Shown: piece after piece, positions 6,543 to 54,300 of the stretch
Layout: every line of letters starts with the position of its first letter
How positions within the stretch are numbered: the stretch's first letter is position 1
Assembly (NCBI GenBank): GCA_963719885.1
Contig: CAVRDP010000030.1
Span: forward strand, 66,250 to 130,249
Length of the DNA: 64,000 nucleotides
Direction of reading: 5' to 3'
Origin: an uncultured Planctomycetia bacterium
GTDB taxonomy: Bacteria > Planctomycetota > Planctomycetia > Pirellulales > Thermoguttaceae
Notes under the pieces: generated by a model
What the model was told of the DNA's origin: nothing
Databases searched by the model: none
Seen by the model: only the letters and a program-made list of their open reading frames with translations
Translations under genes and position numbers: made by a program

Positions 6543-6550
6543 CGTGCTCC

Positions 6551-7648: not shown

Positions 7649-7776
7649 ACATACTCCGAACTCTGCACTCCCTACTCTGTACTCCCTACTCTGTACTCCC
7701 TACTCTGTACTCCCGGCCCGTCTTTCCCGGCGGCAATCGCTTTCCATGCCTTGTTGACCGAAGCGTCGCGAATCAC
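7649..7776. repeat. Heptamer array plus conserved core, copy 3
   Basis: CTACTCTGTACTCC x3 (7-nt period) at 7649-7712, then CGGCCCGTCTTTCCCGGCGGCAATCGCTTTCCATGCCTTGTTGACCGAAGCGTCGCGAATCAC. Overlaps the stop of the truncated vapC. Confidence 0.85.
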
Positions 7777-8271: not shown

Positions 8272-8585
8272 TTTCCGTATTTCCTCGCTCCTGGAACTGC
8301 TTGCCTTTGTCGTGGGCGGGACCCTTAGCCGCTCGCCTGGGGATTTGGTCTCCGCCCCCGCTCTAGGGAAAATCGCTCCTGATAATCCGTTGCGGGCGCC
8401 GGATACTCGTCGTGCGGCGGCAATTCTGCCACGAACCCCGCCACGCTGCATGATCCATGCTATTATGGCGGCTTCGGGCGCAAAGTCAACTCAATTCGGG
8501 CGTTTTCCAGCATGTCCGGCGGCTGTTCCACGTCATGGCGGCGGATCCGCAAGGCCGTGCAACATGCGGCGGCCGCACCATGTCA

Positions 8586-8731
8586 CGTACTCCGTACTCC
8601 GTACTCTGTACCCTGTACTGCGTACTGTGCACTCCGTACTCCCGGGCCGTCTTTGCCGGCGGCAATCGCTTTCCATGCCAAGTTCACCGAAGCGTCGAGA
8701 ATCACCGGCTCCTCAGGTTCCGGGTGCAAAG
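8586..8731. repeat. Heptamer array plus conserved core, copy 4
   Basis: GTACTCC GTACTCC GTACTCT GTACCCT GTACTGC GTACTGT GCACTCC GTACTCC, then the full ~90-nt core (CGGGCCGTCTTTGCCGGCGGCAATCGCTTTCCATGCCAAGTTCACCGAAGCGTCGAGAATCACCGG...GGGTGCAAAG). Confidence 0.85.
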
Positions 8732-8834
8732 ATGGGGACGGCTTCAGCGCCATCTGACGGTGGTTTTCCGTGTATCAGCGAGACGCCACGTCGGGTCGGC
8801 ACGTCGCGACGCGCCCCGTTCACGTTCAATATAA

Positions 8835-9939
8835 GTGATGTCCCTTTATCCGGCCCTATCCGGCCCCTTCATTGCTGTACATAGCCAAATAAATGCCAAG
8901 AAGTCGGGTGGAAGTGGAAACCTGTATCAGGCAACGATCGACGCACTCTGGGCGGAGGCTCGCCGACTGTCGACTCTCCCCTCGCCGCAATTTGGCCCGA
9001 AGTATGTGACCAGTGAGCCCGGAACGCTGTGGGGGCTGTCGCCGAACCAGCGAATGATGCTGGCCTTGTCACGGGCCAAGGCTCAACTCCCGTCAGCGCT
9101 TTACCAGAAGTTCGAAGAGCTTTTCACACGGACGAATCTTCTCATCATGGGTGGCGCGGTAGGGGTATTGGTTGCAGCCCATTTCTTCGGGGTCGGCGAA
9201 ATAATTGACCTTATTGGACTAGCATGGATTGGGGTTGATTCCGCGGTGACTCTTATTGACCTTTGCGGCGCAATCGCGGACGCCAGGGCTGCGGTTGATG
9301 ACGCTGCAGATTGATGTCGCCGCATCGCGGATCGCAAAGGACTTTTCCGAACTCGTGCGGACTGGGGCATTGACGCTCGGAGGCGCGGGAGCCGGGAAAT
9401 TGGGTCGTGCAGGGGCGCGGTTACTGAAAGGCAAGCGCGTAACTGTTCCCGAGGTGCCACCGGAAGCGCCGCCGCCACCGCCCGAGGTGCCACCGCCACC
9501 GCCCGAAGTGCCGCCGGTTGAACCACCGGTTGAGCCGCCGCCGGTTGAACGGACGCCAGTTCCTGGTGGTGACCTGGCAGTGCATGAAGCGGCTGGTGGA
9601 CATACGATTGCCGAACATGTTGGACGAACAACTGAGCAGTTGGCTACACGACTCGTTGATGAGCCTAAGATTCCCGCAGCATCCACATTTCCCAATATTG
9701 CTACGGCCGAAAGAGCCACAGCCGATGCTCTTCAAGCACGGTCGGCGGAGATTGCAAGCTGGCTTTCCACCAGCGCTAAGAGGCTGGTACTAAAAGTACC
9801 ATTGCTCTATGATGTTGGCATCAGTTTGGCCCGTGGAGCTACCACTCCTGTCAATGTACGGTCGGTATTGATCGTGCTACAGCGAGATGCGTCTTTTCCA
9901 TCGGGATACCGAATTATCACAGCCTATCCGGTACCATGA
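8835..9939 (+). CDS. Polymorphic toxin with C-terminal RNase A-like (CdiA-CT type) domain; one frameshift as assembled (~9290-9310)
   Basis: ORFs 8835..9314 and 9256..9939 overlap in different frames. N-terminal ~150 aa contain hydrophobic helices. A Pro-rich linker follows (PEVPPEAPPPPPEVPPPPPEVPPVEPPVEPPPV). Then AAGGHTIAEHVGRTTEQLATRL...ASTF...ITAYP, which resembles the bacterial RNase A-like toxin domain. GC is lower than in the flanks. Confidence 0.7.
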
Positions 9940-10232
9940 GCGAAGACAAATACAAAAACCTCCGGCACTTACTTGGTTCGTACTTACACCAAGATTGGAT
10001 GTTGGAGTTTCAAAACCCATTTGATGCTATTGCAGCTTTCAGGGAACAGGAGCCTACTGAATCTGTTCAGGCGGCTTGTAGGGAGCTAGAAGAGGTTATT
10101 CCCTTGGTTGAGGGTATGCAAGACGCCGAAACGTTCTTATGGCAGGTTCTATCGTGTTACTATTCCCCTAGGACGGACGGGTTATCGGTTGCCGATTGGT
10201 TTCGACTGGTTCGCAATAAACTTTGCGGGTAG
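9936..10232 (+). CDS. CdiI-type immunity protein
   Basis: ATGA start/stop overlap with the toxin. 98 aa. LLGSYLHQDWMLEF...DAIAAF...VLSCYYSPRTDGLSVADWFRLV resembles the contact-dependent-inhibition immunity family. Confidence 0.65.
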   Translation: MSEDKYKNLRHLLGSYLHQDWMLEFQNPFDAIAAFREQEPTESVQAACRELEEVIPLVEGMQDAETFLWQVLSCYYSPRTDGLSVADWFRLVRNKLCG

Positions 10233-10429
10233 GTGTTCTGGTGCCCTGGTCCAGCGACCCCGCCAACCGACGATCCAGCGAAGCAAACGCCCCCGCAGCC
10301 AGAACGGCTTGGGCGGCGGACGGAAAGATGGCTGAGCCCTTGCTGTGTTGGTCCAACGACCTTTTACAACCGATCGGATGGATAAGAGAACACCCCGGAA
10401 GGGGCAAGATTGGCATGCGGGTCAAGTAG

Positions 10430-10969
10430 ATGGCTGAGCCCTTTCGTCGCCTCGGCGACGCGCCGCAACTGGCTTTTGAGGAGATTTGGCTCATCTTCCG
10501 ACAAATATGGTTGGTCGTGTTGGTGCTCCTTGCGGCGCTCGGCAGTCTTGCCGTGGCAACCGCCGCAGAACCCAAGGAGGCGGTCAGCAAGGCGAAAAGC
10601 CCCCGAAAGGAACTGACGGTGGACCTTGGCAAGGGCGTGAAGCTGGAGATGGTCTTGATCCCGGCGGGCGAGTTCCTGATGGGTTCGCCCGATTCGGACA
10701 AGGGAGCCGTCACCTGGGAGAAGCCGCAGCATCGGGTTCGGATAACCAAGCCGTTCTACCTCGGCAAGTATCTGGTTACGCAGGAGCAGTGGGAAGCTGT
10801 CATGGGCAAGAATCCGAGCCACTTCAAGGGATCGAAGAATCCGGTGGAAACAGTCAGTTGGGACGACTGCCAGCGGTTTCTCGGCAAGCTCAATACAAAG
10901 ATCGGCACGCACGGCGGAAAGTTCGTATTGCCGACTGAGGCACAGTGGGAATATGCCTGCAATCCTTAG
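10430..10969 (+). pseudogene. Formylglycine-generating enzyme (SUMF1/FGE) family protein, 3'-truncated
   Basis: Signal/TM region, then MVLIPAGEFLMGSP...PQHRVRITKPFYLGKYLVTQEQW...NPVETVSWDDCQRFL...LPTEAQWEYAC. It stops abruptly (NP-TAG) exactly where the 195-nt repeat copy 1 begins. The C-terminal half of the domain is absent. Confidence 0.75.
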
Positions 10970-11165
10970 TCGCCAACTCGTTATTATTTCTGTTCGTTTC
11001 ACCAAACTCAACGCGGCCCCGCGGTCCTGGCGGTTGTACCCGGTTCGCGGGCAGGCGGCTCCGTCAGGGGACCAGCAGCCAGCACAAAAGTTCGGGAAAA
11101 ACCTGATTCTACCCCCGCTAACGTGGAGACGCAACTTGCAATGGCGACTAAATTTCGAATCGCAG
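10969..11165. repeat. ~195-nt direct repeat, copy 1
   Basis: GTCGCCAACTCGTTATTATTTCTGTTCG...GGCGGTTGTACCCGGTTCGCGGGCAGGCGGCTCCG...AAGTTCGGGAAAAACCTGATTCTACCCCCGCTAACGT... Near-identical to 12218-12415, same orientation. Confidence 0.85.
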
Positions 11166-11202
11166 TTTTCTCAAACGTCTTGACACGCTCCGCGTCCACT
11201 GC

Positions 11203-11380
11203 TCACGACGCGTTCTCCGGCTTTAACGTGAAAGCCAATTCGCAGCCGCGGGGCGCCGGCGGGCGCTCCATCAAACGGCGAATCGCGGCCACCAACGGCT
11301 GGATCGCCACGTCATGCGCCGCCGACCTTCCACTCCAACGCGGCCAGCTTTCCGGCTAACTCCTTGTGTCGCAAATCAGC
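11203..11380 (-). pseudogene. Possible C-terminal remnant of an ORF6N/KilA-type phage-related protein
   Basis: Reverse frame reads ADLRHKELAGKLAALEWKVGGAHDVAIQPLVAAIRRLMERPPAPRG..., with no start codon and stops upstream. Resemblance to ORF6N C-termini is from memory only. Confidence 0.3.
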
Positions 11381-11562
11381 GCCGAGACCACCCGGATTAG
11401 TGGTCGACTCCGTTCGGAATGGTCATACTACGGAGATTTCAGGCAAAACTGTGGATCGTCGAGTGTGTCGTCTATTGACTAGCCTACCGAGGACCGTATA
11501 TTAAGGATGGAGGCTTTGGTTGGCCCTTGCGGGCCGGGCATTGCCTTCGTTTTTTCTTGCGG

Positions 11563-12087
11563 TCACTCCTGCTCATTCTCGCGGTCGAAGTGGCCACGCA
11601 GGTCGTCCAGATAGAGGTAGACGTAGTCTTTACGAAGCCGCCCTTGTTCTGGCTTTGGCGCATCTTGATCCACCACAGATGCAAAAACTTGGACGTTGAA
11701 ACTGGCGGCTATATCCAGAACCGCGTGGACGAACTCCAAGACCTTGCGGCTAAAAGCAACAATTTCCAGGAAGGTTGGATTGCTGGTCGCCTGCCCTCGG
11801 GCGGCCTTTCCCTTCCGCAGCAACGAATTGGCCAGCGCCGCGCAGTCGTCGGTTGGGATAACAACATCGCGTTGGGCCTCATAGAAGCGGTCGGGCTTCA
11901 GGAGTTTTTTTGCCTTCATCTCGCCAGCGTAAACGTCTCGCAAATAATTGCCAAAATGATCTCTTTCCGCCGAGCGAATGGCACGCACCAGATTCCAAAG
12001 CATGTCTTCCGCGACGGCTACGCCCGCAAGCACTTCGCATGGCGTCCCGCTCTTGTTATGCCCGCTCTCGTCGACAAATAGCAGCAT
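11563..12087 (-). CDS. DUF3800 domain-containing protein
   Basis: 174-aa intact ORF starting MLLFVDESGHNKSG (the DESG motif of DUF3800). Lower GC than surroundings. Lies between the two 195-nt direct repeats. Confidence 0.75.
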   Translation of the reverse strand: MLLFVDESGHNKSGTPCEVLAGVAVAEDMLWNLVRAIRSAERDHFGNYLRDVYAGEMKAKKLLKPDRFYEAQRDVVIPTDDCAALANSLLRKGKAARGQATSNPTFLEIVAFSRKVLEFVHAVLDIAASFNVQVFASVVDQDAPKPEQGRLRKDYVYLYLDDLRGHFDRENEQE

Positions 12088-12217
12088 GATCTACCTGGTG
12101 GCGTTCATTTCGGACCAGGCGCCAGCCACCAAATATGGAAGTCTAGGGGGTGTGCGCCTATCGATCATATTTATTGTGCCTGGATTTCGTGGCCGCGACC
12201 CCCTGTTTGTTCCCCGT

Positions 12218-12415
12218 GTCGCCGACTCATTATTATTTCCGTTGGGTTCACCAAACGCAACGTGGCCCCGTGGTCCCGGCGGTTGTACCCGGTTCGCGGG
12301 CAGGCGGCTCCGACAGGGGACCAGCAACCAGCAGCACAAAGTTCGGGAAAAACCTGATTCTACCCCCGCTAACGTAGAAACACAACCAGCAATGGCAGAT
12401 AGGTTCGATTTCGGC
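12218..12415. repeat. ~195-nt direct repeat, copy 2
   Basis: GTCGCCGACTCATTATTATTTCCGTTGG...GGCGGTTGTACCCGGTTCGCGGGCAGGCGGCTCCG...AAGTTCGGGAAAAACCTGATTCTACCCCCGCTAACGT... Confidence 0.85.
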
Positions 12416-12716
12416 AAAAAGATGATTGACAGGAACATGGCCTGTGAGTACACAGGCGACAGAAAAATGAGGAGCAGAAACATGAGGAAGGAGGAAGCGT
12501 GAAGCGGCGCTGATGCGCACGGATCCACCAGGAAGATGGGGGAGTTTACTCGCTTTTTGCTGTGCGCTTGTCGCGAGATTCCGCTGTTTCGCAACTCCTT
12601 TGGGACGAACGCCTTGCGGCAATATGGTAAGCCGCGACCACATGTACAACCGTACCAAATCGCCTGCTCCTGCGTACTTATTCGTAGAGAAAAGTCGTGC
12701 GCAAGGAGCAGGGAGC

Positions 12717-12762
12717 AGAGTACGGAGTGCAGAGTACACAGTACCGAGTGCAGAGTACAAAG
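12717..12762. repeat. Heptamer (AGTACNN) array, reverse orientation
   Basis: AGAGTACGGAGTGCAGAGTACACAGTACCGAGTGCAGAGTACAAAG is the complement of the GTACTCN arrays at 6.5-8.7 kb. Confidence 0.8.
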
Positions 12763-12831
12763 AATAAATATGGATACGTAGGCTATATCAGTAATATCCG
12801 TGGACCTATAACGACCAAAAGGAGATCGAAC

Positions 12832-13188
12832 ATGCCTAGCCCAAAAGAAAAACCGGCCTCCGCAACGCAATTGCGGAAGGAGGCCCTGCTCGCACAAGTC
12901 TGCAGGCTGGCGCTGGCCGGCCAAAGCTGCCGGCAGATCGCCGCGACGTGCGGGCTGCCCAAGTCGAGCGTCCATCGCTGGCTGGAAGCCCTTCGCGAGG
13001 ACTGCCCGACGAGAAAAACCTCATGGGCGGCAAGAAACCGGCGAATTCCTCGGGAAAGGTTCGCCCGGCCGGCTGCGGGCGATTGTGTTGTCCGGAAATC
13101 CGGAACGCCGAACTGTACAAAATCACCGGCTAAAACGTACTTATTAGGGCGAAGAATGAAGGATGATGAGGGAGAACGACAGGATTGA
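12832..13188 (+). CDS. Small helix-turn-helix protein, possibly a remnant
   Basis: AAGGAG upstream of the ATG at 12832. QVCRLALAGQSCRQIAATCGLPKSSVHRWLEAL looks like a resolvase/transposase-type HTH. The C-terminal ~60 codons look non-coding. Confidence 0.35.
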   Translation: MPSPKEKPASATQLRKEALLAQVCRLALAGQSCRQIAATCGLPKSSVHRWLEALREDCPTRKTSWAARNRRIPRERFARPAAGDCVVRKSGTPNCTKSPAKTYLLGRRMKDDEGERQD

Positions 13189-13444
13189 ATGGCCGTCACG
13201 CCCGCCATTTGCGCAAAGGACCCGAAACGACGCGAATTCTTGCTACCGTCCGACGGCTATATGCGTCAGGACCCAAGGAGTTGTAAACCATCCTTTTCCC
13301 GTGTTTTCTCAAGCAGAAGAAATAGCGGTGCCACTCCGGTGGCTATGGCATAATATACTATCCGTGGTAAAAAACAGGCGAAAATCAGAAAGCAATTCGT
13401 TTTTTGGCAAAGTTGGCAAGTGCCCCCCAGTGGGATGAGGATTA

Positions 13445-13535
13445 AGGCGGAAGGATGAAGGATGAAGGCGGAAGGATGGGGAAGCCGCCCTCACCCCCGG
13501 CGCCTCTCCCGAGTACGGGCGAGGGGAGGGGAGAG
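13445..13535. repeat. GAAGGATGAAGG tandem motifs followed by a CCCTCACCCC/CTCTCCCGAGTACGGG hairpin element
   Basis: AAGGCGGAAGGATGAAGGATGAAGGCGGAAGGATG (13445-13480), then CCCTCACCCCCGGCGCCTCTCCCGAGTACGGGCGAGGGGAGGGGAGAG. Related motifs occur at 13151-13172 and 13941-13960. Confidence 0.7.
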
Positions 13536-13965
13536 ACAAGGGATCACCTCGATTTTGGACCACATTGTGGTGGACCACAAGGAAGGCATCCACACCATGT
13601 AAGTACCGCATGGAAAAGCACTTACGGATGTTTTTTCCGGACCGCGAAGATTGCCCGGCTAGCGGTCTTTTTTGTTCTTGGATTATTTGCTTGGCGCATT
13701 GCCCCCTGCGTGGGGGATCGAGTCTCGATTTTCGGCCAAAACCTCTGTCGCCGATTCAGCAGCGGTGGTCCATGACGATCCGCGGCCAAGAAAGGCGTTG
13801 AACGGGGTTTTGTCCCGGTATTAGGGCGTTTTTTCAAGAACAATGCCCGCCGGGGAGACGAATTTGGACCACACCGTGATAGACCAAGATTTTTTCCTAG
13901 AAATGCGCGACCGACAAGAGGAGAAAGAAGGAGGAGAGACGAAGGCGGAAGGATGAAGGGAGCGC

Positions 13966-13990
13966 GGAGTACACAGTACCGAGTACAAAG
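13966..13990. repeat. Short heptamer (AGTACNN) array
   Basis: GGAGTACACAGTACCGAGTACAAAG. Confidence 0.6.
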
Positions 13991-14064
13991 CGGCGGATAG
14001 AAAACGGCCGGGATCGATGAGTAACGTCTTGATACGGTTTGATCTTAGCTTCTCGGGCGGCTGC

Positions 14065-37168: not shown

Positions 37169-37221
37169 GTACGTCAGGCTTTCCAGCCTGACTGTCTGTC
37201 AGGCTGGAAAGCCTGTCGTAC
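37169..37221. repeat. CAGGCTTTCCAGCCTGAC-type palindromic element
   Basis: GTACGTCAGGCTTTCCAGCCTGAC-tgtct-GTCAGGCTGGAAAGCCTGTCGTAC. Lies in the cbiL-cbiF gap. Confidence 0.85.
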
Positions 37222-38751
37222 TACGGCCCTTTGGCTTGAACGATCAAGATCGATAAATACCCCGCCTCGTTGGGCAACCCCTGCAAGCGACGCACGTCGG
37301 TTTCCACCTGTTGTTGCGGCATGCCGGCACGCGACACGAAGATCGTCTGCTCCAATAGGCTGCGGGTTTCCAGTTCGTCGAGGACCCGCGCCAGGCGCCG
37401 TCCGACTTTCATCAAGACGACGGTGCCGCCACGGTCCAGCGCGGCGGTGAACTGATCGAGATCGTCCGAGGCCGGAACGACCGTCAGCAATTGTTTGCCT
37501 TCCCCTAGCGGCTGGTTTGTCAGGGCGGCCGCCGCGCTGAAGGCCGTCACCCCCGGCACCGTGACGACCTGCAGGGCTGGTTCGATCGCCCGCAACTCGC
37601 GCAGCAGGTAGATATAAGTCGAGTAGAGCAGGGCGTCGCCGAGGGTCAGGAAACAGCAATCCTCGCCGCGGGCCAGAATCTCGTGGACTTCCCGCGCAGC
37701 CCGCTGCCAGTTTTCCCGCAACACGCCCGGGTCGGCAGTCATGGGATAGGCCTGCTCGTGTACGACTGCATCCGGCCGAAGATAGCTGCGGGCGATCTCC
37801 AAGGCCACGCTATCGGCCGCCAAGGCCGATTTGGGCACGCACACGTGCCGGCAGGTCGAAAGGATGCGGACGGCCTTGACGGTCATCCATTCCGGATCGC
37901 CCGGGCCCACGCCGATGCCGTAAAGGGTTCCAAAATCACCCTTTCCCGCCTGCCTGTAGGGAACGTCCTCTGTGGCGTTCCATGACGGGGTCGAATGCCC
38001 TTTATCCGGAACGCCACGGAGGGCGTTCCCTACAGGCGTCTCCCCTCGCTGCAAACCGCCCTCACCCCGACCATGGGTACATGGTGCCCGCCCTCTCCCG
38101 AGTACGGGAGAGGGGAGCTTGCGAATAAGAAGCACGATCGACAGTGAAGCGGCGTCGATCTGGCCGAGTTGTTCGGGCGCAATCTGCTGAAAACGTTCGC
38201 TGTCGAGAGTCAAGTTTTCGGCGAGAAACGCAGCATGGCTGGCATGCAAGGCGCTGGCCATGCCAGCCGACCAGCGGATGGCCTCCGCCGTGCCGGCGAG
38301 GATGGCGATCTTGTCGGCGTCGAGCGAGATCGTCCGCGGTGATGTTCGGAATTCGCCCATGGGCGCTCAGGATGCGGGCATCGGCCCAATCCAGCCCGAG
38401 CCGGGCAAAGGCCACCTGTACCGAACTGACGGCCGGAACGACTTCGCATTGCTCCCGGCCGAAGCGTTGGATCACATTCTGCGCGAGACTGTGCAGTCCC
38501 GGATCGCCGCTGACCAGCACGGCGATCCTCTGCCCGGCCGTGCGCCGCGTCGCAATCTGCTCCAGGAGTGCGGCGATATCGGTCTCGACGAGGATTCTCT
38601 CCGCGGGGCAATCGGGAAACAGTTCCAGGAGGCGCTGGCCGCCCACGAGGACGTCGGCCCGGGCGACCGCCTGCCGCGCGGCCTCGGTGACATACTCGGC
38701 CGAACCCGGCCCGCAGCCGACGATCGAGAGCGGGGGTGTGTTCATTGCCAT
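37221..38751 (-). CDS. cbiE/cbiL: Apparent CbiE-CbiL fusion (cobalt-precorrin-7 C5-methyltransferase + cobalt-factor II C20-methyltransferase); one frameshift in the CbiE part (~38305)
   Basis: ATG at 38751 (MAMNTPPLSIVGCGPGSAEY...VLVSGDPGLHS...ILSAHGR). After the frame switch it reads DADKIAILAGTAEAI...SIVLLIRK. A ~65-aa repeat-derived linker follows. Then CbiL (TLYGIGVGPGDPEWMTVKAVRIL...LTLGDALLYSTY...VPGVTAF). No stop codon and no ATG/GTG separates the two enzymes. Confidence 0.8.
37953..38036. repeat. GTAGGGAACGCC...GGCGTTCCCTAC palindromic element (intragenic)
   Basis: CCTGTAGGGAACGTCCTCTGTGGCGTTCC ... GGAACGCCACGGAGGGCGTTCCCTACAGG. 84 nt. Same family as 44342-44423. Confidence 0.85.
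38059..38117. repeat. CCCTCACCCC / CCTCTCCCGAGTACGGGAGAGG hairpin element (intragenic)
   Basis: CCCTCACCCCGACCATGGGTACATGGTGCCCGCCCTCTCCCGAGTACGGGAGAGGGGAG. Relatives at 13488-13535, 51293-51329, 53353-53391, 54084-54137 and 54185-54215. Confidence 0.8.
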
Positions 38752-38781: not shown

Positions 38782-38870
38782 AGTACAGGCACACTCCGTG
38801 TGCCGTCCGCCCGGCGGCGTCAGCCGCAGGTTTTTTCAAAGCGGACGGCACGCGGAGCGTGCCTGCTACT
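38782..38870. repeat. AGCAGGCACACTCCGTGTGCCGTCCGC palindromic element (intergenic cbiD-cbiE)
   Basis: AGTACAGGCACACTCCGTGTGCCGTCCGC ... GCGGACGGCACGCGGAGCGTGCCTGCTACT. Same family as 46513-46620. Confidence 0.85.
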
Positions 38871-38883
38871 TTGGTGGCCGTCT

Positions 38884-40841: not shown

Positions 40842-41615
40842 CTCTCTGCCAGGATGTATGCCGCAATAATGACCGTCACCCCGCTGCAGGCAAATGCCAC
40901 TTGGCGCCAGGGCAACCGCGGCATGGCAGGCAGAGGCAAGTGTCCCCGATAACCGCGGGCCGTCATGGCCTCATGCGACTTCTCGGCCTGATCCAACGAG
41001 CGGAGGACGACCATCCCCGCCAGGTTCCCCAGCGATTGAAACGATCGCCGCATGTCCGCTGTAGCCCAGGCGGACCCTCTGCGCCGCCGTGATGCAAACG
41101 GATTGCTCAAGGAAGACGTGCAGGTAGCGATACATGAGCACTGCGATTTCGATCCACGTCCGCGGTACCCTGGCCCAGCGCAATGCGGCGAGGATTTCCG
41201 CAACGGACGCGCCCTGGCATAAGAGCATTACGATTCCGAACGAGCCGAGCACGCGGCTGGCGATCAAGGCTCCCGCCCGGAAGCCTTCGCGGCTGGCCGT
41301 CAAGCGACAGAAACCGAGATCGATCGTGGCCATCGGCGTGGCGCCTGTCATGAACGTCTGCATCAGCAACACAAGGGCCGCAATTGCCGCCGGTCCCATC
41401 AGCCGGTACATGAGGACCTTTGGCGGGGTGCGCACGGCGGCCAGGCCGGCCAGCGAGCACCCCAGCGCAATCAATCCGAACCCAATGTACGTCGACGCCA
41501 CGGTCGCCACGACGGCCGCCAGGGCCACGATCAAGCGGACACGAATGTCGCAGCCCGCCAGCAGAATGCTGCTGGACCCGGATCCGCGCGAACGAAACTC
41601 GTGAAAGTGGTGCAT
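40829..41615 (-). CDS. cbiQ: Cobalt ECF transporter T component; one frameshift as assembled (~41050)
   Basis: ORF 40971..41615 (multi-TM, ...AQRVRLGYS) joins ORF 40829..41203 (ADMRRSFQSLGNLAGMVVLRSLDQAEKSHEAMTARGYRG). Confidence 0.8.
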
Positions 41616-41638
41616 GATCGCCTTCTTAGAAAAGAAGA

Positions 41639-41678
41639 TGGTAGAAAGGAAAATGAGTTCATTTTCCTTTCTACCATT
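41639..41678. repeat. AT-rich perfect 19-bp palindrome in the cbiN-cbiQ gap
   Basis: ATGGTAGAAAGGAAAATGA-gt-TCATTTTCCTTTCTACCAT, followed by further TTTTCCTTTCT repeats. Confidence 0.9.
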
Positions 41679-41687
41679 TTCCTTTCT

Positions 41688-41924
41688 TCAATCTTCCTTT
41701 TGCTTCTTGCTAACTTCGTTTGCGGCCCGTTTTCGCGGTGGGAAGAGCCCGCGGAACGTGTAACCGATGATGAACCCGCCGATCACGCCGGCCAGCAGGA
41801 ACATGAAGAGCAGCAAGTCGCCTTGCTCGGTATTGATATAGGGCTCCCGCGCCGGGTGCCCGGCATCGGCGGCCACCTTTTCTACCAAATCGTCCAGGCC
41901 TTGCCAATTCGTCGCGTAGATCAT
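41688..41924 (-). CDS. cbiN: CbiN-like small cobalt-transport membrane protein
   Basis: ATG at 41924 (ATGA overlap with the cbiM stop). ...QGDLLLFMFLLAGVIGGFIIGYTF resembles the CbiN C-terminal helix. Position between cbiM and cbiQ fits. Confidence 0.65.
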   Translation of the reverse strand: MIYATNWQGLDDLVEKVAADAGHPAREPYINTEQGDLLLFMFLLAGVIGGFIIGYTFRGLFPPRKRAANEVSKKQKED

Positions 41925-42696: not shown

Positions 42697-43699
42697 TTAT
42701 TTCTCCTCGCCGAGCGTGGCCAGGGCGTTGACGGCCGCCGCCGCCACCGAGCTGCCGCCGCGCGGGCTGGTGTTGGTAATCGAACAAAGGTCGCTCTCCC
42801 ATAACGCCAGTTTCGATTCCCTGGCGCCGACGAAGCCGACAGGCAGCCCGACGACCAGGGCCGGACGATGGCCGCCGTTGCGGGCGAGTTCCATGACTTT
42901 CCAGAGCGCGGTCGGCGCGTTTCCGATGGCCACGATCGCGCCCTCGATACGCGGCGCCAGCAGTTCCATGGCCGCCGCCGCCCGCGTACATCCCCTGCTT
43001 CGGGCCAAGGCGGCGACCTCGGGGCGATCGAGCGCAGCAGAGGATTTCGCCGCGGACCTTCGTCATACCCGCCTGGAGCATCTTGACATCGCAGACGATC
43101 GGCTTGCCTGCGGCCAATGCCGCAAGCCCACGCTGGATGGCCTGCGGATGAATCCGCAGCGTGCGGGCGAAGGAGATATCGGCCGTGGCATGGACCACGC
43201 GGCGAACAATTCGCCGCGCCCCGGTATCGGCGGGACCCCAATCGCCAAGTTGCCGGTCGATGATCTCGTAGCTTCGCCGCTCGATGGCCGCTCCGTCGCT
43301 CGGTAGGCATGGGCTGCTATCCGTGTATGGCGTGAGCCGTTCCACCAGCAAGTCCTCTAGCGCAGGATCGTTTTCCAGCGTGGGCAGCAGTTCCAGCGCG
43401 ACCTGCGGGCATCGCCGGCGGCACTCATCCAAGAGCGCGGGAATATCGACGGTCACATGCTGGCCGGAATAAAGAAAATAGGGCATCGAGAAGACGCGAC
43501 GCACTCCGCCAGCCGCCATGGCAAGCACCTGATCTGGGATATCGGGTCGGGTAATGGAAAAGAAGGCCGGTGCCACCTCAGCCCCTTGCAATCGCGATGC
43601 CACGCGCGCGACCATGGCCTGAAAGCCCTGGTTTGCCTCGGCACGAGGGCTGCCATGACTGATAATAAGGATGCCGGTTGCGTTTGCCGCGTCGCTCAT
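42697..43699 (-). CDS. cbiX/cbiC: Apparent CbiX(small)-CbiC fusion (sirohydrochlorin cobaltochelatase + cobalt-precorrin-8 methylmutase); one frameshift in the CbiC part (~43030)
   Basis: N-terminus ILIISHGSPRAEANQGF...MPYFLYSGQHV (CbiX). Then IERRSYEIIDRQL...VVHATADISF...IVCDVKMLQAGM (CbiC). After the frame switch the reading continues in ORF 42697..43008 (GAIVAIGNAPTAL...PALVVGLPVGFVGARESK). Confidence 0.8.
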
Positions 43700-45133
43700 G
43701 GTCGTTTCTCACAGCAAGAGAGGAAGTGGTGAATTGCCTCGGGCCGGGATGCCCAATGCAGGTGTACGTAGCCGGCCAAAACCCGTCCCCGGCAAAACCC
43801 TTCCAGGGCGGGTTCGGCCCGTCGGCGGCAAACCGTGTAAGCCGGTTGCCAACCGCCCGCCGGGCCATCTTGGGTGGTGATTTGCGGAATAATGGAACTC
43901 GTGTCCGCGTACGATCTCTTCCGCCGCTCCCCATAGCGAATCGGCTGCCCACTGGATCTCCGTATAGCCCAGCACCTTGAGCTTCTCCAGCATGGCCGTC
44001 TCGATGGGCAACACGCCGGCCAACAGATACCGCACGCCGTCCAAGGTGGTCAGGGCTTGGCCAAGGTACATCAGCCCGCCACACTCGGCATAGACGAGGC
44101 CTCCCGCGGCGGCGAACTCGCGGACGGCGGCCAACATTCCCAAGTTAGCGCTCAAGCGGGCGGCATGGACCTCGGGATAACCGCCGCCGAAGTAAAGCCC
44201 ATCCAGCTCCGCGGGCAGGCCCACGTCGGCCAGTGGCGAGAACGGCACCCACTGGACGCCGGCCCGCGCCAGCGATTCCAAGTTGTCGGGATAGTAGAAG
44301 TGGAAGGCTTCGTCCCGGGCAATTCCCAGGCGGAGGTTGGCCTGTAGGGAACGCCCTCCGTGGCGTTCCGAATTAGGGGCGATCGTCTCCTTCACGGAAC
44401 GCCGCGGAGGGCGTTCCCTACAGTCGTGACACACGTCGCCGCTCCCCGCCAATTCCAAAATCGCCGGCACGTCCAGGTATTGACCACAGGCATCGGCCAA
44501 CTGATCGAGGATTCCGGCCGAAAGGTTCGCTTGCTCGGCGGTCACCAACCCCAAATGCCGGCTAGGCAACGTGGGCAGCGATCCGCGGGGCAACATGCCC
44601 ACCAGCGGTGGCGATGAGGCACCCGCCAACGATTCCGACAGCCAGGCGCGGTGCCGCTCGGAGCCGCCCTGGTTGGCGATCACCCCCGCCACGCGGACGC
44701 CCGGCTCGAAGCGGGCAAAACCTTGGACCGTCGCCGCCAGGCTGCGGGCCGCTCCATGCGCATTGACCACCAACAGCACCGGTGCGTCGAGCCACAGCGC
44801 GATCTCGGCCGTACTACCCTCGAGAGTGCTTGGCGAAGCGCCGTCGAACATGCCCATCACGCCTTCGATAATCGCGAGGTCGGCATCGGCCGTTGCCCGC
44901 ACGAACAACTCGCACACATATTCGCGCGAGGTCATCCATCCGTCGAGGTTGTAGCAGGTGCGGCCGGAGGCCATGGCCAGGTAACTCGGGTCGAGGAAGT
45001 CGGGCCCGACTTTGAAGGTCTGCACGCGCAATCCTTGTCGCACAAGCCGCCGTGCCAGTCCCAGCGCAAGTGACGTCTTTCCCACGCCACTGCCGGTTCC
45101 GGCAATCACCAGTCGGGGACAAACGGAACTCAT
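43696..45133 (-). CDS. cbiA: Cobyrinate a,c-diamide synthase; one frameshift as assembled (~43890) and an in-frame repeat insertion
   Basis: ATG at 45133 (MSSVCPRLVIAGTGSGVGKTSLALGL...FKVGPDFLDPSY). GATase part has IARDEAFHFYYPDN...YAECGGLMYL...RGHEFHYS. The true C-terminus lies in another frame (GWQPAYTV...LEGFCRGRVLAGYVHLHWASRPEAIHHF) and ends at a TGA overlapping the cbiX ATG. Confidence 0.85.
44342..44423. repeat. GTAGGGAACGCC...GGCGTTCCCTAC palindromic element inside cbiA
   Basis: CTGTAGGGAACGCCCTCCGTGGCGTTCCG ... CGGAACGCCGCGGAGGGCGTTCCCTACAG. Translated in frame as RERPPRRSVKETIAPNSERHGGRSLQ. Confidence 0.85.
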
Positions 45134-45657
45134 CGCTCGACTCCTTCCTGGGCGGCCCGCCCGGCTTGCAGGCCGTGCTTGAGGCATCGCATTTCCGTGA
45201 CGGTATCGGCCAAGGCGATCAAGGCGGGAGTCGCGTAGCGGCCCGTGAGCACCAGGCACGTCTCCGGCGGGGCCTGGGCCAGGAGTTCCGCCACTTCGTG
45301 TTCCTCAAGCAATCCACGGGCGACGGCCAGACAGATCTCGTCGAGGATTACCAGCGGGAACTGCCCACGGGCCAGGATTTCCGCCGCCTTGCGCAAGCCG
45401 GTTTGCGCCGCCGCCCGATGCTCGACGAAACGCGGATCATCGACCGGTGGCAGGAATCCCAGCCCCGTCGTATGGATCTCAATGTTCGCGGAAGCCGCCG
45501 CGGCGGCAACTTCGCCTACGGACGTGTCGCTCTTGATGAACTGGATGACGTTGGACCGCAGGCCATGACCGCTGGCGCGGAAAGCCATGCCCAAGGCGGC
45601 CGTGGTCTTGCCCTTGCCGTCGCCCGTGAAAATCAGGATCCGCGGTTTCTGGCTCAT
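45130..45657 (-). CDS. cobO: Cob(I)yrinic acid a,c-diamide adenosyltransferase
   Basis: ATG at 45657 (ATGA overlap with the cbiB stop). ILIFTGDGKGKTTAALGMAFRASGHG...VIQFIK...LVILDEI...LVLTGR. Intact. Confidence 0.9.
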   Translation of the reverse strand: MSQKPRILIFTGDGKGKTTAALGMAFRASGHGLRSNVIQFIKSDTSVGEVAAAAASANIEIHTTGLGFLPPVDDPRFVEHRAAAQTGLRKAAEILARGQFPLVILDEICLAVARGLLEEHEVAELLAQAPPETCLVLTGRYATPALIALADTVTEMRCLKHGLQAGRAAQEGVER

Positions 45658-46748
45658 GCGCTGGTCCCCCACACTTGCCATAGATTTACTGCCCCCGCCC
45701 GCAGCAGCAGGCATGCCACCAGAAACAACGCGCTGGTCCACAGCATCGAGAGAGTGGCGCACACGATGTGGCACCGCGACAAGGGCATGAGCGGGTCGCC
45801 GATCGTGGGCTTTTCCAGCGGCTGGCCGTCGTAATAATTCACCCCGCCCAACTGCACGCCCAGGGCGCCGGCCATGGCGGCTTCAGCGAGACCGGCGTTC
45901 GGACTGGCGTGCTTCCGCCCGTCTCGGAGCAGGATGCGTAGCGCGTGCCGCGCCGAGAGGATCGAAGCCCGCGCCGCCGCCAGGCACATCAAAGGGGCCG
46001 TGAGCCGGGCGGGGAGATAGTTGGCCAAATCGTCGATCCGCGCCGCCGCCCAGCCGAAATGCCGGTAGCGGTCATCCTGGTGCCCGAACATCGAATCCAG
46101 CGTGTTCACCGCCCGATAGACCATCGCCCCTACGGGACCGGCAATCGCGGCGAAGAACAGCGGGGCCGTCACTCCGTCCACCGTGCTCTCGGCGACGCTT
46201 TCCACGGCGGCCCGGACCACGCCTGCTTCGTCGAGTTGCTGCGTGTCGCGGCCGACGATTTTCGCGACCCGTCGCCGGGCCTCGTCGAGGTCGCTGGCAA
46301 CCAAGGCACTAAAGACCGCCATGCTATGCCGGGCCAGGTCGTGCGCGGCAATGGTCATGTAGATAACGAAGATCGACACCGCATCGGCCGCCCACGGATG
46401 CACCGCGGCCGCTAGATGAATCGCTGCCCACGTTGCCAGGCCAACCAGAATATACGTAGTGAGCGCCGCCAACAGGCCTGCAATTCGCGTCGCCTCCGCC
46501 TGGCACAAGAAAGGTAGCAGGCACACTCCGTGTGCCGTCCGCCCTACTGCCCCAGCCAAAGGTTCATTTTCAGAAGCCGAAGGCTGCTGGCGGACGGCAC
46601 ACGGAGTGTGCCTGCTACTTTGCCGCGACAAAGTTTCCAGCCAAAGCGCCAGCCGCCCGATGCCGCGGACCGGGTGCGGCAACCATCGCGGATCACCGAG
46701 GATCAGGTCGATGGCAAAGGCACTCAGGATTTGATATTCGAGTCTCAT
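45654..46748 (-). CDS. cbiB: Adenosylcobinamide-phosphate synthase, with an in-frame ~36-codon repeat insertion
   Basis: AIDLILGDPRWLPHPVRGIGRL...IVGRDT...ESTVDGVTAPLFF...YRAVNTLDSMFGH...ARIDDLANYLPARL...SPNAG. Frame intact. Confidence 0.9.
   Translation of the reverse strand: MRLEYQILSAFAIDLILGDPRWLPHPVRGIGRLALWLETLSRQSSRHTPCAVRQQPSASENEPLAGAVGRTAHGVCLLPFLCQAEATRIAGLLAALTTYILVGLATWAAIHLAAAVHPWAADAVSIFVIYMTIAAHDLARHSMAVFSALVASDLDEARRRVAKIVGRDTQQLDEAGVVRAAVESVAESTVDGVTAPLFFAAIAGPVGAMVYRAVNTLDSMFGHQDDRYRHFGWAAARIDDLANYLPARLTAPLMCLAAARASILSARHALRILLRDGRKHASPNAGLAEAAMAGALGVQLGGVNYYDGQPLEKPTIGDPLMPLSRCHIVCATLSMLWTSALFLVACLLLRAGAVNLWQVWGTSA
46513..46620. repeat. AGCAGGCACACTCCGTGTGCCGTCCGCC palindromic element inside cbiB
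   Basis: GGTAGCAGGCACACTCCGTGTGCCGTCCGCC ... GGCGGACGGCACACGGAGTGTGCCTGCTACT. 108 nt. Translated as SSRHTPCAVRQ...GRTAHGVCLL. Confidence 0.9.
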
Positions 46749-49438
46749 CAGAAACCCATAAGCCGGTAGACTTCGTCCATTCGTATACTCTCACGCACCA
46801 CTTCCGCCAGGCGATCCAAGGCCGGCTCGATGTCGTAGCGGCCGATCACCTTTCCCACGGGCGCTAGGCCGCGCCGCACGCGCAAACCATCGATGAACCA
46901 GCGGCGGAAGGCGTCGCAATCGAACAGACCGTGCAGGTACGTACCCCAAACTCTATGACCATGGTCGGCAATGCCGATGGTCTGGCCGTCGTCGCGAGTT
47001 ATCATCGGATCACAATCGTCAAAGATTGTTTGCCCGTGATGGATCTCGTAGCCGCTCAGTCTGAAGCCGGAAAGGAGATGCCGGGCGGTGGTCGCGACCA
47101 GCGTTTTCTCGGCTGCCATCACCGTGTCGGCGGCGAGCAGTCCCAACCCGCGGGAGTACCCGTGGGATTTCTCGCCCGCCGATTCGATGCCAAGTGGGTC
47201 GCGGATTTCGCGGCCCAGCATCTGCAGTCCGCCGCAAATTCCGATGACCTCCCCCCTGCCCTCCCGGGCCAAGGCGGTTATCCGCTCGGCCAATCCGCTG
47301 CGACGGAGATAATCCAGGTCGCCCAACGTGTTCTTGCTGCCGGGGATGATTACGGCATCCGGGGAATTCAGGTCCGCCGCGGTGCGAATGATTCGCAACC
47401 GCACGTCAGATTCCGTGCGGAAGGCGTCGAAATCGGTGAAGTTCGCGATGTGCGGCAAGTCGAGCACCGCGATCTCGACGGCGTCTTCGTTTCCGGCCGC
47501 TTGATCGAGCGCGCCGCTCTTGAATTCGACCGAATCTTCCTGGGGAAGACCGAGTTGGGCAAGATACGGTACCACGCCGAACACGGGCCGGCCTGTGTGC
47601 CGCAACGTATAGTCCAGCGCGGGACCCAGCAAACTTGCGTCGCCGCGAAAACGATTGACGACCCAGCCGGCGACCCGCTTGCGTTCCCAGGGGGCAAGCA
47701 CTTCCATCGTGCCGACGAACGAAGCAAACACGCCGCCGCGATCGATGTCGCCGACTACGAGCACGGGGGCGGCCGCATACTCGGCCATCCGCATGTTGAC
47801 GATGTCATGACTCTTCAGGTTCACTTCGCCGGGCGAGCCGGCGCCCTCCAAGACCATCGCGTCGAACTCCTCAGCCAGCGAGTCGTAGCACTGTTTTGCG
47901 GCGGCAAAGGCCTGCGGCTTGTAGGCTACGTACTCGCCGACTCGCATGTTTCCCACGGGCTTGCCCCGCACAATGACCTGGCAGCCGGTGTCCGAATTGG
48001 GTTTGAGGAGGATGGGGTTCATCCGCACATCGGGCTCCAGGCGGCAGGCCTGGGCCTGTACGACCTGGGCGCGGCCCATCTCGCCGCCGTTGCGGTCAAT
48101 GAACGAATTGAGCGACATGTTTTGGGCCTTGAACGGCGCCACGCGGATGCCGTCCTGGAACAGAATCCGGCATAAGGCCGCCGTCAACACGCTCTTGCCG
48201 GCATTGGAACTCGTGCCTTGAAGCATGAGGGCCGGCGTCTGCCGACATTTGCAAAATGAATTTGCACGATTTGCGTAGGGTGGGACAAGATCCGGGGTAC
48301 CCGCGCCGTGGGTCGGCGAGCGCCGGCCCACCAATTCTTGCGGTTGGTGGGCCGGCGCTCGCTGCGCGATCTTGTCCCACCCTACGATTTGCTCCAGAGC
48401 CTCGCACAGCCGGCAGTTCTCTTCCTCCGTGCGCACGGCTACGCGGAAGAATCGGGTGTCGAGGTGTTGCTCCTCGTCGAAGGTGCGGATGGCAATGCCC
48501 TCGCGAAGCAGGTGATCGGCCAGATCCGAAGCCTGCATGTCGGTTCGATCCAACCGGACCAGGAGAAAGTTCGTGACGCTGGGGTAAACATGCAGCCCGG
48601 AAAGCTTCATCAGTTTCGCGGTCAGCCGCGTCCGCTGCTGGTCGACCAGGGCTATGCTCTGTCGTGCGTAGTCTTCATCGGAGAGCAAATCGATCGCAGC
48701 CTCTTGCGCCAAAACACTCACCGACCAAGGCAGGATTTGGCCTCGGATCTGCCGGACGGCCTCCGGGCAGGCCACCGCATAGCCAACGCGCAGTCCGGGG
48801 ACCGCGTAGAACTTCGTCAGCGAGCGCACGACGATCACGTTGGACGCGGTCCGCCCGGCCAAAGATGCGTAGCCCTCGATGAAATCAGCGAAGGCCTCAT
48901 CGACGACAAACGTGGTGGCGCGATGCCGGGCGGCCAGCCCGCAAAGTGCATCGCCATCCAGTGCCCGGCCCGTGGGATTGTTCGGTTGACCGAGGAGCAC
49001 GAGATCTTGTTCGCGAAGTTGACCTTCCAACGCGTGCCAGTCGAGGGCAAAGTCCTCGCTTTCCTTCAACTTCAAGAAAGAGACTTCACGGCCGGCCGCC
49101 CGCACCGCCGCGGCGTAGTCGGTGTACGAGGGCACGGGGATGACCGCGCGGGCGAAGGAAAGGGCCCGCGCCAAGGCGAAGAGAAGTTCCGTCGAGCCGT
49201 TACCGACGACGACCTGCTCTTCGGCCACGTGGTGTCGCCGTGCCAGGAACTCGACGAGGTCGCTGCAGTCGGGATCGGGATAATGCACGATCCGGTCGAT
49301 GTTCCGCGTCAGTGCCGCCCGCAGACCATCGGGTGGGCCCAGCGGATTGATGCTGGCGCTGAAATCGAGGATTTGGTCCTGGCCCCGTCCGGCCCGTTGG
49401 GCCAACTCATGCAGGTTTCCGCCGTGTGTATTTGCCAT
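46748..49438 (-). CDS. cobD/cobQ: Apparent fusion of L-threonine-phosphate decarboxylase (CobD, Salmonella naming) and cobyric acid synthase (CobQ/CbiP)
   Basis: Single intact 896-aa ORF. N-terminus is aminotransferase class I/II-like (HGGNL...NPLGPP...PNNPTGR...[15 protein letters not shown]). A linker encoded by a nested palindrome follows. Then [14 protein letters not shown]...KPNS...[10 protein letters not shown]...YEIHHG (CobQ). Confidence 0.85.
48274..48384. repeat. Nested palindromic element (111 nt) at the cobD/cobQ junction
   Basis: Outer arms GTAGGGTGGGACAAGATC / GATCTTGTCCCACCCTAC. Inner arms GCGAGCGCCGGCCCACCAA / TTGGTGGGCCGGCGCTCGC. Confidence 0.9.
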
Positions 49439-53285: not shown

Positions 53286-53414
53286 TCAAACGCGCAACGA
53301 TGGCATTGGACCTTCCCACGAAGGCATGCTATAAGGACGGCCGCTACCACGACTCCCTTCTCCTGCCGGGAGAGGGGCAGGGGGTGAGGGGTTCAGTTGC
53401 GGTCATCGATCAAG

Positions 53415-53660
53415 CATCCTTTTTTGGTGTCCTGACTTTCGGGTCGTCCTACTCGCTACGGCCTTCCCATCCCCACGAGGACAGTGGCCAACATTGCAGC
53501 TTTCGTCGCCGATCACAGTGGCGGGGCCGTGCCGGATTTTCACCAGCTTCCCTGCTTTCCGCTTGCAGTTGGTGAGGCAGATTGAACCGTCATCAGTCGG
53601 AGAGCGCCAGCGCGCTGACCCCTCGATCACGGGGCAACAGCCGCCGAAACTCAAGCGGAA
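53415..53660 (-). promoter_or_regulatory. Cobalamin riboswitch (controls the cob operon)
   Basis: Minus strand reads GCAGGGAAGCTGGTGAAAATCCGGCACGGCCCCGCCACTGTGA ... CCACTG...GGGAAGGCCG ... AGTCAGGACACC (B12-box-like). These match the conserved core as I know it (Rfam RF00174). Confidence 0.8.
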
Positions 53661-53701: not shown

Positions 53702-53739
53702 GCGGGTGCGGCGGGCCGGCCGATTCGGCTCTTGCCCTC

Positions 53740-53767
53740 TTGACGCCGATTCGCGGCATGGTACACT
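53740..53767 (+). promoter_or_regulatory. Sigma70-like promoter for the peptide/rSAM operon leader
   Basis: TTGACG-N16-TACACT. 38 bp from the divergent promoter. Confidence 0.5.
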
Positions 53768-53769
53768 GG

Positions 53770-54000
53770 AGGCGGTTTCAGCATCTCGGAACACGGTGCA
53801 AGTCCGTGGCTGTCCCGCAACTGTAATCGGCGAGGCGACTCACTTAGAACCTATCCCAGAACCCTGAGATGGCCCTGGAGTGCATCGGGCTCAATCCGGT
53901 TCCAGGATAGGTTCTCAGGCCCCCGCCGGCCACTGCCGCGATGCATCGCGGTGGGAAGGCCGTGAGCCGCCAACGACCCGCAGCCAGTAGACCTGCTGAT
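53770..54000 (+). promoter_or_regulatory. Cobalamin riboswitch (controls the peptide/radical-SAM/S51 operon)
   Basis: GGAACACGGTGCAAGTCCGTGGCTGTCCCGCAACTGTAA (53788-53826), CCACTGCCGCGATGCATCGCGGTGGGAAGGC (53930-53960), and B12 box GCCAGTAGACCTGC (53983-53996). A long stem insert (AGAACCTATCC...GGATAGGTTCT) lies in the variable region. Confidence 0.8.
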
Positions 54001-54041
54001 GCCACGCACGCAACGTGAATCTGATGGTAAAGGATTCCGAT

Positions 54042-54156: not shown

Positions 54157-54300
54157 ATGAAGAAGACACCGAAACTGCCCTCATCCCCTGCCCCTCTCCC
54201 CAAGAGAGAGGGGAGCGACGTGATCGCCTATCGCAAGACGTGCAAGGCCACGGGCACCGGCCTGTCGCACTACATCTTGATGGACAAGAAAGCGAAGTGA
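54157..54300 (+). CDS. Short peptide ORF (47 aa from ATG 54157, or 26 aa from GTG 54220): candidate precursor peptide
   Basis: MKKTPKLPSSPAPLPKREGSDVIAYRKTCKATGTGLSHYILMDKKAK. Its TGA shares a base with the ATG of the radical SAM gene (TGATG at 54298-54302). The alternative GTG at 54220 has GAGGGGAG 5 nt upstream. Confidence 0.55.
   Translation: MKKTPKLPSSPAPLPKREGSDVIAYRKTCKATGTGLSHYILMDKKAK

Follow-up and report, generated by a model that had tools for sequence, protein, structure and literature searches.

Can a conserved membrane enzyme carry a palindromic repeat as part of its own polypeptide chain and remain functional? The question is raised by a 64,000-nt stretch of contig CAVRDP010000030.1 (hereafter the window) from an uncultured Planctomycetia bacterium of the family Thermoguttaceae, in which a long palindrome is positioned inside cbiB, the gene encoding the adenosylcobinamide-phosphate synthase of the cobalamin pathway. 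The most probable explanation, to which we assign a probability of about 85%, is that a non-autonomous doublet of repetitive extragenic palindrome (REP) units inserted in frame into a permissive loop of CbiB and is carried there as a tolerated passenger.

The palindrome in cbiB is 111 nt long and has two arms of 33 nt each (46511–46543 and 46589–46621), which are 97% complementary and are separated by a 45-nt spacer (46544–46588). According to a repeat search, it is the longest close inverted repeat of the window. The tetranucleotide GTAG is located at 46514–46517 and its complement CTAC at 46615–46618, and the core delimited by these tags, 46514–46618, is 105 nt long. An earlier note, made from the sequence alone, had described a 108-nt palindromic repeat read in frame inside cbiB. 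The arm sequences that it quoted are present at 46513–46543 and 46589–46619, and its description requires adjustment only in the length. The lengths of 105, 108, and 111 nt are all divisible by three, and the frame read through the element is free of stop codons, as the note had stated. The repeat encodes the peptide SSRHTPCAVRQQPSASENEPLAGAVGRTAHGVCLL of 35 residues between HPVRGIGRLALWLETLSRQ and the next helix. The RNA of the coding strand is predicted to fold with a free energy of −88.5 kcal/mol (z = −10.3). A 24-nt probe from the arm, with up to three mismatches allowed, identifies four sites in the window, two in cbiB and two at 38788–38863, and no match occurs in any of 100 dinucleotide-preserving shuffles of the sequence. 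No direct repeat indicative of a target-site duplication flanks the element in ...GGCACAAGA / element / GCCGCGACA..., and Rfam has no match to the element at gathering thresholds. When Rfam was searched in E-value mode, the hairpins gave sub-threshold matches to models of animal and plant microRNA precursors (for example mir-5856, which on both strands reached 47.5 bits where the gathering score is 90), which were dismissed as generic matches of long hairpins.

A protein search over 5.8 billion sequences provided 119 close orthologues of the window CbiB, and those that are named belong to Thermoguttaceae or other Planctomycetota. Approximately 100 of these 119 orthologues have 324 residues and lack the segment, and the window protein is 40 residues longer. 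In an alignment calculated with MAFFT, the block RHTPCAV...PFLCQA (residues 46–84) is exclusive to the window protein, and residues 44–78 (SSRHT...GVCLL) are encoded by the repeat. Because most of the closest orthologues are without the segment, the alignment identifies it as an insertion relative to them, and its interpretation as an ancestral loop was dropped. This comparison had been proposed in the earlier note, and no orthologue was found to have the same segment without a repeat. The closest relative, L121, is represented by a short-read scaffold, in which the neighbouring genes are 76–92% identical to those of the window. The DNA of L121 is nearly identical on either side of the insertion site, and the element is absent. 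L121 has 12 extra residues at the same loop; the alignment of their DNA to the REP, as a possible decayed relic, is unconvincing.

The enzyme encoded by the interrupted gene looks intact. The alignment of the other 119 CbiB sequences has 118 columns with a conservation of at least 95%, and the window protein keeps the consensus residue in all 118 of them, compared with 99% for the median orthologue. The open reading frame (ORF) matches its Pfam profile with E = 3.5e-99 over positions 2–275 of 282, in one stretch across the insert. A structure of the window CbiB predicted by AlphaFold2 with a 117-sequence alignment has a mean predicted local distance difference test (pLDDT) score of 90.7 and a predicted template modelling (pTM) score of 0.87. 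Low confidence is limited to residues 45–77, and the stretch with values below 50 occurs only within residues 53–71; the mean pLDDT values of ten-residue blocks over residues 41–80 are 77, 47, 46, and 54. The insert is modelled as a coil between helix 26–45 (HPVRGIGRL...) and helix 78–116. Since the low-confidence coil is confined to the insert, the model places the insert in a loop, with the remainder of the fold predicted to be as in the orthologues. The catalytic core is predicted to be unchanged, and the approximately 35–40 added residues are predicted to form a disordered loop. The position between the HPVRGIGRL segment and the next hydrophobic segment and the apparent tolerance of the enzyme, both proposed in the earlier note, are in agreement with these results. 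The window CbiB is probably expressed with the insert and active. Read most simply, the peptide is a passenger that the enzyme tolerates rather than a newly acquired functional module.

The arms of the palindrome are formed by REP units of about 30 nt with the organization AAA-GTAG-CA-[GGCACAC-TCC-GTGTGCC]-GTCCGC(C), in which the bracketed part is a stem-loop; the units are also written in the short form GTAGCAGGCACAC. A scan with the pattern GGCACRCTCCGYGTGCCGTCCGC, using one genome per species, resulted in at least 119 stretches. The matches listed are from Pirellulaceae, Lacipirellulaceae, Thermoguttaceae, Planctomycetaceae (including Schlesneria and Planctomyces), Gemmataceae, Isosphaeraceae, and Tepidisphaeraceae, and the orders among them are Pirellulales, Planctomycetales, Gemmatales, and Isosphaerales, plus Tepidisphaeraceae. 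The matches listed also include one bin of Kuenenia and four records of Poribacteria, of which three are complete chromosomes, and several genomes contribute five to nine separate loci each. The 23-nt REP arm is exact in these metagenome-assembled genomes (MAGs) and records (loci L001–L119), among which the unit GTAGCAGGCACACTCCGTGTGCCGTCCGC is nearly invariant. The profile of 138 aligned units is composed of an A-rich triplet, GTAGCA (93–99%), GGCACAC-TCC-GTGTGCC, GTCCGC, and C (50%), followed by random sequence. The frequencies of the four tag nucleotides are 0.96 (G), 0.99 (T), 0.94 (A), and 0.96 (G). The degenerate stem pair is A-T in 114 units, G-C in 22, G.T in 2, and A.C in none, with about 18 A.C expected if the two positions were independent, and in copies from Isosphaeraceae one stem pair is changed to its compensated G-C form. 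This covariation is supportive of the stem and not proof of it, as the unit copies are phylogenetically non-independent. An inverted partner at a distance of 4–146 nt, with the GTAG ends pointing outward, was found for 72 of the 138 units in a search within 170 nt; the remaining units are single, with a few in tandem, as in L108. Of the six reading frames of the unit, only one is closed, a forward frame that includes the TAG of GTAG; the other two forward frames and the three reverse frames are open. The element fits a GTAG-tagged REP arranged as an inverted doublet, similar to the doublets called REPINs. The earlier note had named it "REP/MITE-like". The REP part of that name is supported by the GTAG tag, the 7-bp stem-loop, the multiple copies, and the inverted doublets, and the part referring to miniature inverted-repeat transposable elements (MITEs) is less apt, as there is no target-site duplication.

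Another doublet of this REP family is found in the window, where it lies within the 132-nt spacer that separates the stop codon of cbiD (38884) from the start codon of cbiE (38751), so that four REP units in two doublets are present in these 64 kb of the genome. It is the intergenic relative that the earlier note had reported at 38782, and its arms match at 38788–38863. The two doublets have in common the arm sequence and some of the spacer, and also the flanks ACAAGAAA and TTTG, which belong to the element itself. Because the two copies share spacer and flank sequence, it is the doublet that is copied as a unit. The intergenic copy has a predicted folding energy of −71 kcal/mol (z = −7.8) and was called terminator-like on both strands by a terminator scan. 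Its spacer contains a small GC hairpin followed by TTTTTT (38812–38836), which is terminator-like on the plus strand, and the same module of hairpin and T-run is found in a doublet from an unrelated Planctomycetia MAG (L098, ~3880–3905). In the cbiB copy the T-run and the inner spacer hairpin are degraded, and the scan gave no terminator-like call within the palindrome.

The cbiB genes of other genomes indicate that the acceptance of such sequences is a repeated phenomenon. Of 120 CbiB proteins compared, 20 (17%) have inserts of at least 12 residues. In six proteins they are located after consensus columns 42–48, in four of these exactly after column 45, as in the window protein. The other inserts cluster after column 111, after columns 223–226, after columns 317–320, and at the C-terminus. 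When mapped onto the predicted structure, the first three clusters correspond to predicted loops, columns 317–320 coincide with the point where the C-terminal helix ends, and the last cluster is at the C-terminal end itself. The DNA of 12 insert-bearing cbiB genes, including that of the window, was analysed, and 11 of the 12 genes contain strongly palindromic inserts; the exception, P0048, has a single short hairpin and simple repeats. Intact genes together with in-frame cbiB palindromes are found in the short-read assemblies L121 and L127, which contain whole operons, and L124–L126, which contain cbiB and its immediate neighbours. Among the orthologues from clean short-read assemblies with other in-frame palindromes, four have them at the loop that is occupied in the window protein. 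Therefore, the tolerance of inserts by cbiB does not rest on the genome studied here alone. In L127, cbiB (3569–4603) and cbiA (5121–6539) contain one and the same short doublet in frame, GTATCCGGCACACTCCGTGTGCCG...CGGCACACGGAGTGTGCCGGATAC, which is translated as AMYPAHSVCRCQRHTECAGY and EAMYPAHSVCRCERHTECAGY, respectively; GTATCCGGCACACTCCGTGTGCCG is a variant of the same REP core.

The window cbiB belongs to a minus-strand cobalamin operon with the genes cobU/cobT/cobS, cobD-cobQ, cbiB, cobO, cbiA, cbiX-cbiC, cbiM/N/Q/O, cbiD, and cbiE-cbiL, and its ATG overlaps the stop codon of the upstream cobD-cobQ by 1 nt. Three more genes of the operon contain in-frame palindromes in protein linkers (table). 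The CbiA and CbiE-CbiL linkers contain two copies of a REP doublet of the type GTAGGGAACG(C/T)CC.... The CbiE-CbiL doublet is also present in L121 and is therefore older than the split between the window lineage and L121. The nested palindrome of cobD-cobQ has outer arms at 48274–48292 and 48368–48386 and inner arms at 48316–48334 and 48344–48362; its host is an 896-residue fusion of CobD (aminotransferase) and CobQ that is native to the lineage (856–908 residues in relatives). In relatives, the linkers of CbiA, CobD-CobQ, and CbiE-CbiL contain different elements or none. In-frame copies of the REP were also sought among 121 elements in the fetched loci by selecting ORFs with a single-frame coding signal on both flanks, followed by a Pfam scan. 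By this rough screen, about 6 of the 121 elements are in frame within a gene with a two-sided coding signal and a Pfam match, and the location of the family is mostly extragenic. The doublet in LepA/EF4 (~6920–6942 of L110) is translated as VVGTLRVPLPADGTRSVPSTL between the switch I region and the DTPGH motif. Two reading frames are in use, giving VAGTLRVP...ADGTRSVPATL and SSRHTPCAV...RTAHGVCLL.

Table. Positions of the cbiB element, other palindromes of the window, and in-frame REP copies in other Planctomycetota.
Feature	Position	Strand	Host gene or locus	Details
cbiB (adenosylcobinamide-phosphate synthase)	45654..46748	-	window	364 aa; Pfam CobD_Cbib (PF03186)
REP doublet (REPIN-like hairpin)	46511..46621	-	cbiB	in frame; arms, spacer, GTAG-CTAC tags
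Left REP unit core hairpin	46520..46536		cbiB	GGCACAC-TCC-GTGTGCC, 7-bp stem and 3-nt loop; mirror unit 46596-46612
Second doublet of the same REP family	38782..38872		cbiD-cbiE intergenic spacer	shared arms, partial spacer, flanks
GTAGGGAACG-type doublet	44342-44423	minus-strand gene	CbiA interdomain linker	CRERPPRRSV...NSERHGGRSLQ
GTAGGGAACG-type doublet	37952-38037	minus-strand gene	CbiE-CbiL fusion linker	GNALRGVP...WNATEDVPYRQ
Nested GTAGGGTGGG-type palindrome	48274-48386	-	CobD-CobQ linker	in frame, 37 residues
In-frame REP copy			LepA, L110 (Gemmataceae MAG)	GTP_EFTU domain
In-frame REP copy			L-lactate permease, L069	domain match split in two
In-frame REP copy			DUF7133, L089	
In-frame REP copy			solute-binding protein, L039	
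In-frame REP copy			DEAD-box helicase, L022	
In-frame REP copy			sulfatase-like protein, L109	

The arrangement of the element in cbiB suggests how it may have originated. The inserting doublet consists of two inverted GTAG REP units of ~30 nt, with their GTAG ends outward and a 45-nt spacer, and it inserted within the codons of a loop that connects the conserved N-terminal helix with HPVRGIGRL to the long helix following it. By analogy with other REPs, the doublet may have been mobilized in trans by a REP-associated tyrosine transposase (RAYT) of the IS200/IS605-like HUH type acting on the single-stranded hairpin. On the best-supported account, which is a passive one, the copy survived because a permissive loop was hit, the length preserved the frame, and the frame was open. 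Because the net insertion is divisible by three and its frame is stop-free, the ORF survived and the copy escaped the purifying selection by which disruptive insertions are removed. The very stable hairpin in the mRNA probably does no more than modulate expression, and the 33-bp duplex within the coding region could be a substrate for RNase III or an obstacle to the ribosome. The presence of unrelated inserts at a few loops is the pattern expected from a filter imposed by selection; a target preference of the insertion machinery is an alternative.

The rival explanations, which are co-option of the insert, inactivation of the gene, and an artefact, are unlikely even when taken together. The one that survives best, and is nevertheless improbable, is that the insertion has been co-opted, either as an RNA hairpin, acting in processing (for example by RNase III), pausing, or attenuation, or as a loop with a role in the protein. 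The hairpin could set the ratio of expression of cobD-cobQ to that of cbiB and the downstream genes, and its stability, with 33 near-perfect base pairs, would suit such a function. REPs located between genes of one operon are thought to be RNA elements (PMC3733652), the intergenic copy of the window is terminator-like on both strands, and its spacer module of hairpin and T-run recurs in L098 and others. However, in the cbiB copy the T-run and the inner hairpin are degraded, and it is not called terminator-like. In the protein, each arm supplies a His-x2-Cys motif (HTPC...HGVC), but AlphaFold2 models the insert as unstructured, and the same repeat is read in two frames in different genes, which results in unrelated peptides. 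Furthermore, the insert is missing from the closest relative L121, and the palindromes at this loop in orthologues are unrelated or absent, indicating that no particular sequence is required.

It is less probable still, and in our view very improbable, that cbiB is inactivated or that the whole operon is decaying, in which case the open frame would be due to recent chance and would not indicate tolerance. This possibility is raised by four apparent frameshifts relative to L121 in the neighbours of cbiB, namely in cbiA (~43862–43884), cbiC (~42992–43032), cbiQ (~41055–41059), and cbiE (~38318–38323). The one in cbiA resembles a single extra C in TCCGCAAATC, compared with ...SEIT... in relatives. 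Long-read contigs of the relatives L120 and L123 have similarly fragmented gene calls, and it is therefore plausible that the four frameshifts are indel errors of a long-read consensus. The neighbouring genes, 76–92% identical to those of L121, show no decay beyond isolated indels, and cbiB itself has neither a frameshift nor a stop codon and retains all of the highly conserved columns, which is better than the median orthologue. Intact operons in short-read assemblies (L121 and L127, and cbiB with its neighbours in L125 and L126) also have in-frame palindromes in cbiB. An assembly artefact as the source of the element in cbiB is hardly credible: the contig may be a long-read assembly with indel errors, but the sequence fits the consensus of a repeat family seen in more than 100 independent assemblies made with varied technologies, it has in-frame cbiB sequence on both flanks, and comparable in-frame copies occur in Illumina assemblies of relatives.

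Some considerations nonetheless weigh against the insertion of a tolerated REP doublet as described here. The nearest CbiB among the 5.8 billion proteins is 67% identical overall and only ~83% identical outside the inserts, and the exact boundaries of the insertion lack an empty-site allele. If the frameshifts in the operon are real, the pathway may be decaying, and for this genome it could be argued less strongly that an essential enzyme tolerates the insert. Finally, three progressively looser scans for HUH/Y1 motifs (HUH...Y-x(1-4)-[NQ]P) over the window and the 119 loci, each of ~8 kb, gave no RAYT candidate, nor did all-against-all clustering of the 4242 ORFs of these loci, and mobilization by a RAYT rests on analogy. 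The absence of a RAYT from 8-kb samples is not surprising.

The surroundings of the operon contain additional regulatory and repeated sequences. A cobalamin riboswitch identified with Rfam is positioned upstream of the operon at 53426–53552 (-), and a second one, at 53737–54014 (+), is divergent from it; each heads a transcription unit. The pair is flanked by palindromic repeats of the CCCTCTCC/GGGAGAGG type at 53353–53390 and 54178–54215. Between cbiN and cbiQ, an AT-rich palindrome with 29-nt arms (41628–41700) is terminator-like on both strands and has an odd composition for the GC-rich window. Directly downstream of the cbiE-cbiL stop codon is the palindrome GTACGTCAGGCTTTCCAGCCTGAC / GTCAGGCTGGAAAGCCTGTCGTAC at 37169–37221, the core of which, GTCAGGCTTTCCAGCCTGAC, recurs beside a copy of the REP (REP1) in L026. 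The region of the window at ~5000–14000 has a weak codon-position GC signal and contains many direct and inverted repeats, including GTACTCC/GTACTCT runs, GAAGGATG runs, ACCGCGGAT palindromes at 5013–5576, and repeats of 116–120 nt at 7332–8705 and 10969–12396.

The element has well-described counterparts. Documented cases include GTAG REPs, RAYTs, and REP dimers within genes that are read in frame as 20–30 residues (Di Nocera et al. 2013, PMC3733652), and the highest count of intragenic GTAG REPs was reported for Opitutus terrae, a bacterium of the Planctomycetes-Verrucomicrobia-Chlamydiae (PVC) group (PMC3733652). Rhodopirellula baltica has GTAG REPs and a "plethora" of tyrosine-transposase genes, and some REP families are shared by distant microorganisms (PMC3733652). 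REP doublets, or REPINs, are tied to RAYT transposases (PMC3733652; Bertels & Rainey 2011, PMC3116915; Nunvar et al. 2010, PMC2817692). None of the papers searched contains the exact sequence of the REP core of this study, and the sequence was not found in the text and supplements of PMC3733652. The unit resembles GTAG REPs and REPINs in having GTAG beside a hairpin with a 7-bp stem and a 3-nt loop, in a class of units of 20–40 bp with stems of 6–13 bp. The resemblance extends to the multiple dispersed copies, which are single, in inverted dimers with variable spacers, or in tandem arrays, to the mostly extragenic location with a minority of copies in frame, and to the occurrence of several REP families in one genome. 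In contrast to those systems, the unit is near-invariant over several Planctomycetota orders and Poribacteria, its in-frame copies are dense in one operon, and a cognate RAYT was not found in the window and the 119 loci.

Rickettsia palindromic elements (RPEs), the classic case of selfish DNA within coding genes, are, as summarized in PMC3733652, likewise in-frame palindromes that add tens of residues at permissive surface positions of conserved, presumably functional proteins. In that summary, RPE-4 and RPE-6 are assigned to a CGTC-tagged super-family, and RPE-1 is described only as a longer palindromic insertion. The cbiB element is GTAG-tagged and does not belong to the RPE sequence families, with which it shares only the in-frame behaviour, and its host is a free-living bacterium with a large genome, whereas Rickettsia is obligately intracellular. 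MITEs such as Nezha, Correia/NEMIS, ERIC, and RUP are also short non-coding sequences with long terminal inverted repeats that form stable hairpins and are found inside transcription units or ORFs. Unlike them, the cbiB element has no target-site duplication, each of its arms is a GTAG REP hairpin and not a remnant of the end of an insertion sequence (IS), and no parent IS is known. In-frame insertions of REPs and RPEs are thus already established in Opitutus and Rickettsia, but among planctomycetes they are strikingly frequent, and the novelty of the present case is in the host lineage and the gene, with good comparative controls.

Three observations are beyond what was expected: the near-invariance of the unit as far as Poribacteria, the four in-frame copies in one operon, and the recurrent hits at the same CbiB loops. 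Well-studied REP families, for example those of Pseudomonas, diverge between much closer relatives. A broader proposal, which we regard as tentative and rather doubtful, is that one near-invariant GTAG-REP family, distributed over at least five Planctomycetota orders and Poribacteria, together with sister families, routinely generates loop and linker peptides. The four in-frame palindromes in a 17-kb operon, the inserts in 20 of 120 CbiB proteins, and the copy in LepA are the numbers that point in this direction. If the proposal is correct, this breadth would imply either an unusually ancient, tightly constrained partnership of the REP with a transposase or a host factor, or a recent horizontal spread throughout the phylum, and REP insertion would contribute measurably to the long proteins, rich in linkers, of Planctomycetota.

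The cbiB element provides a clean example of selfish palindromic repeats making new protein sequence, in this case in a membrane enzyme of cobalamin synthesis. The unrelated palindromes at the same few loops, in combination with the structural model, show which positions of the enzyme are permissive. For genome annotation, such insertions explain odd variation in protein length and the recurring planctomycete peptides GTLRVP...ADGTRSVPATL, RHTPCA...TAHGVC, GWDKR..PP, and PLPKGEG. Less expected is that the REP unit is nearly identical throughout the phylum; if linked to a cognate RAYT or host factor, this family would be a good system for studying how REPINs persist over long times.

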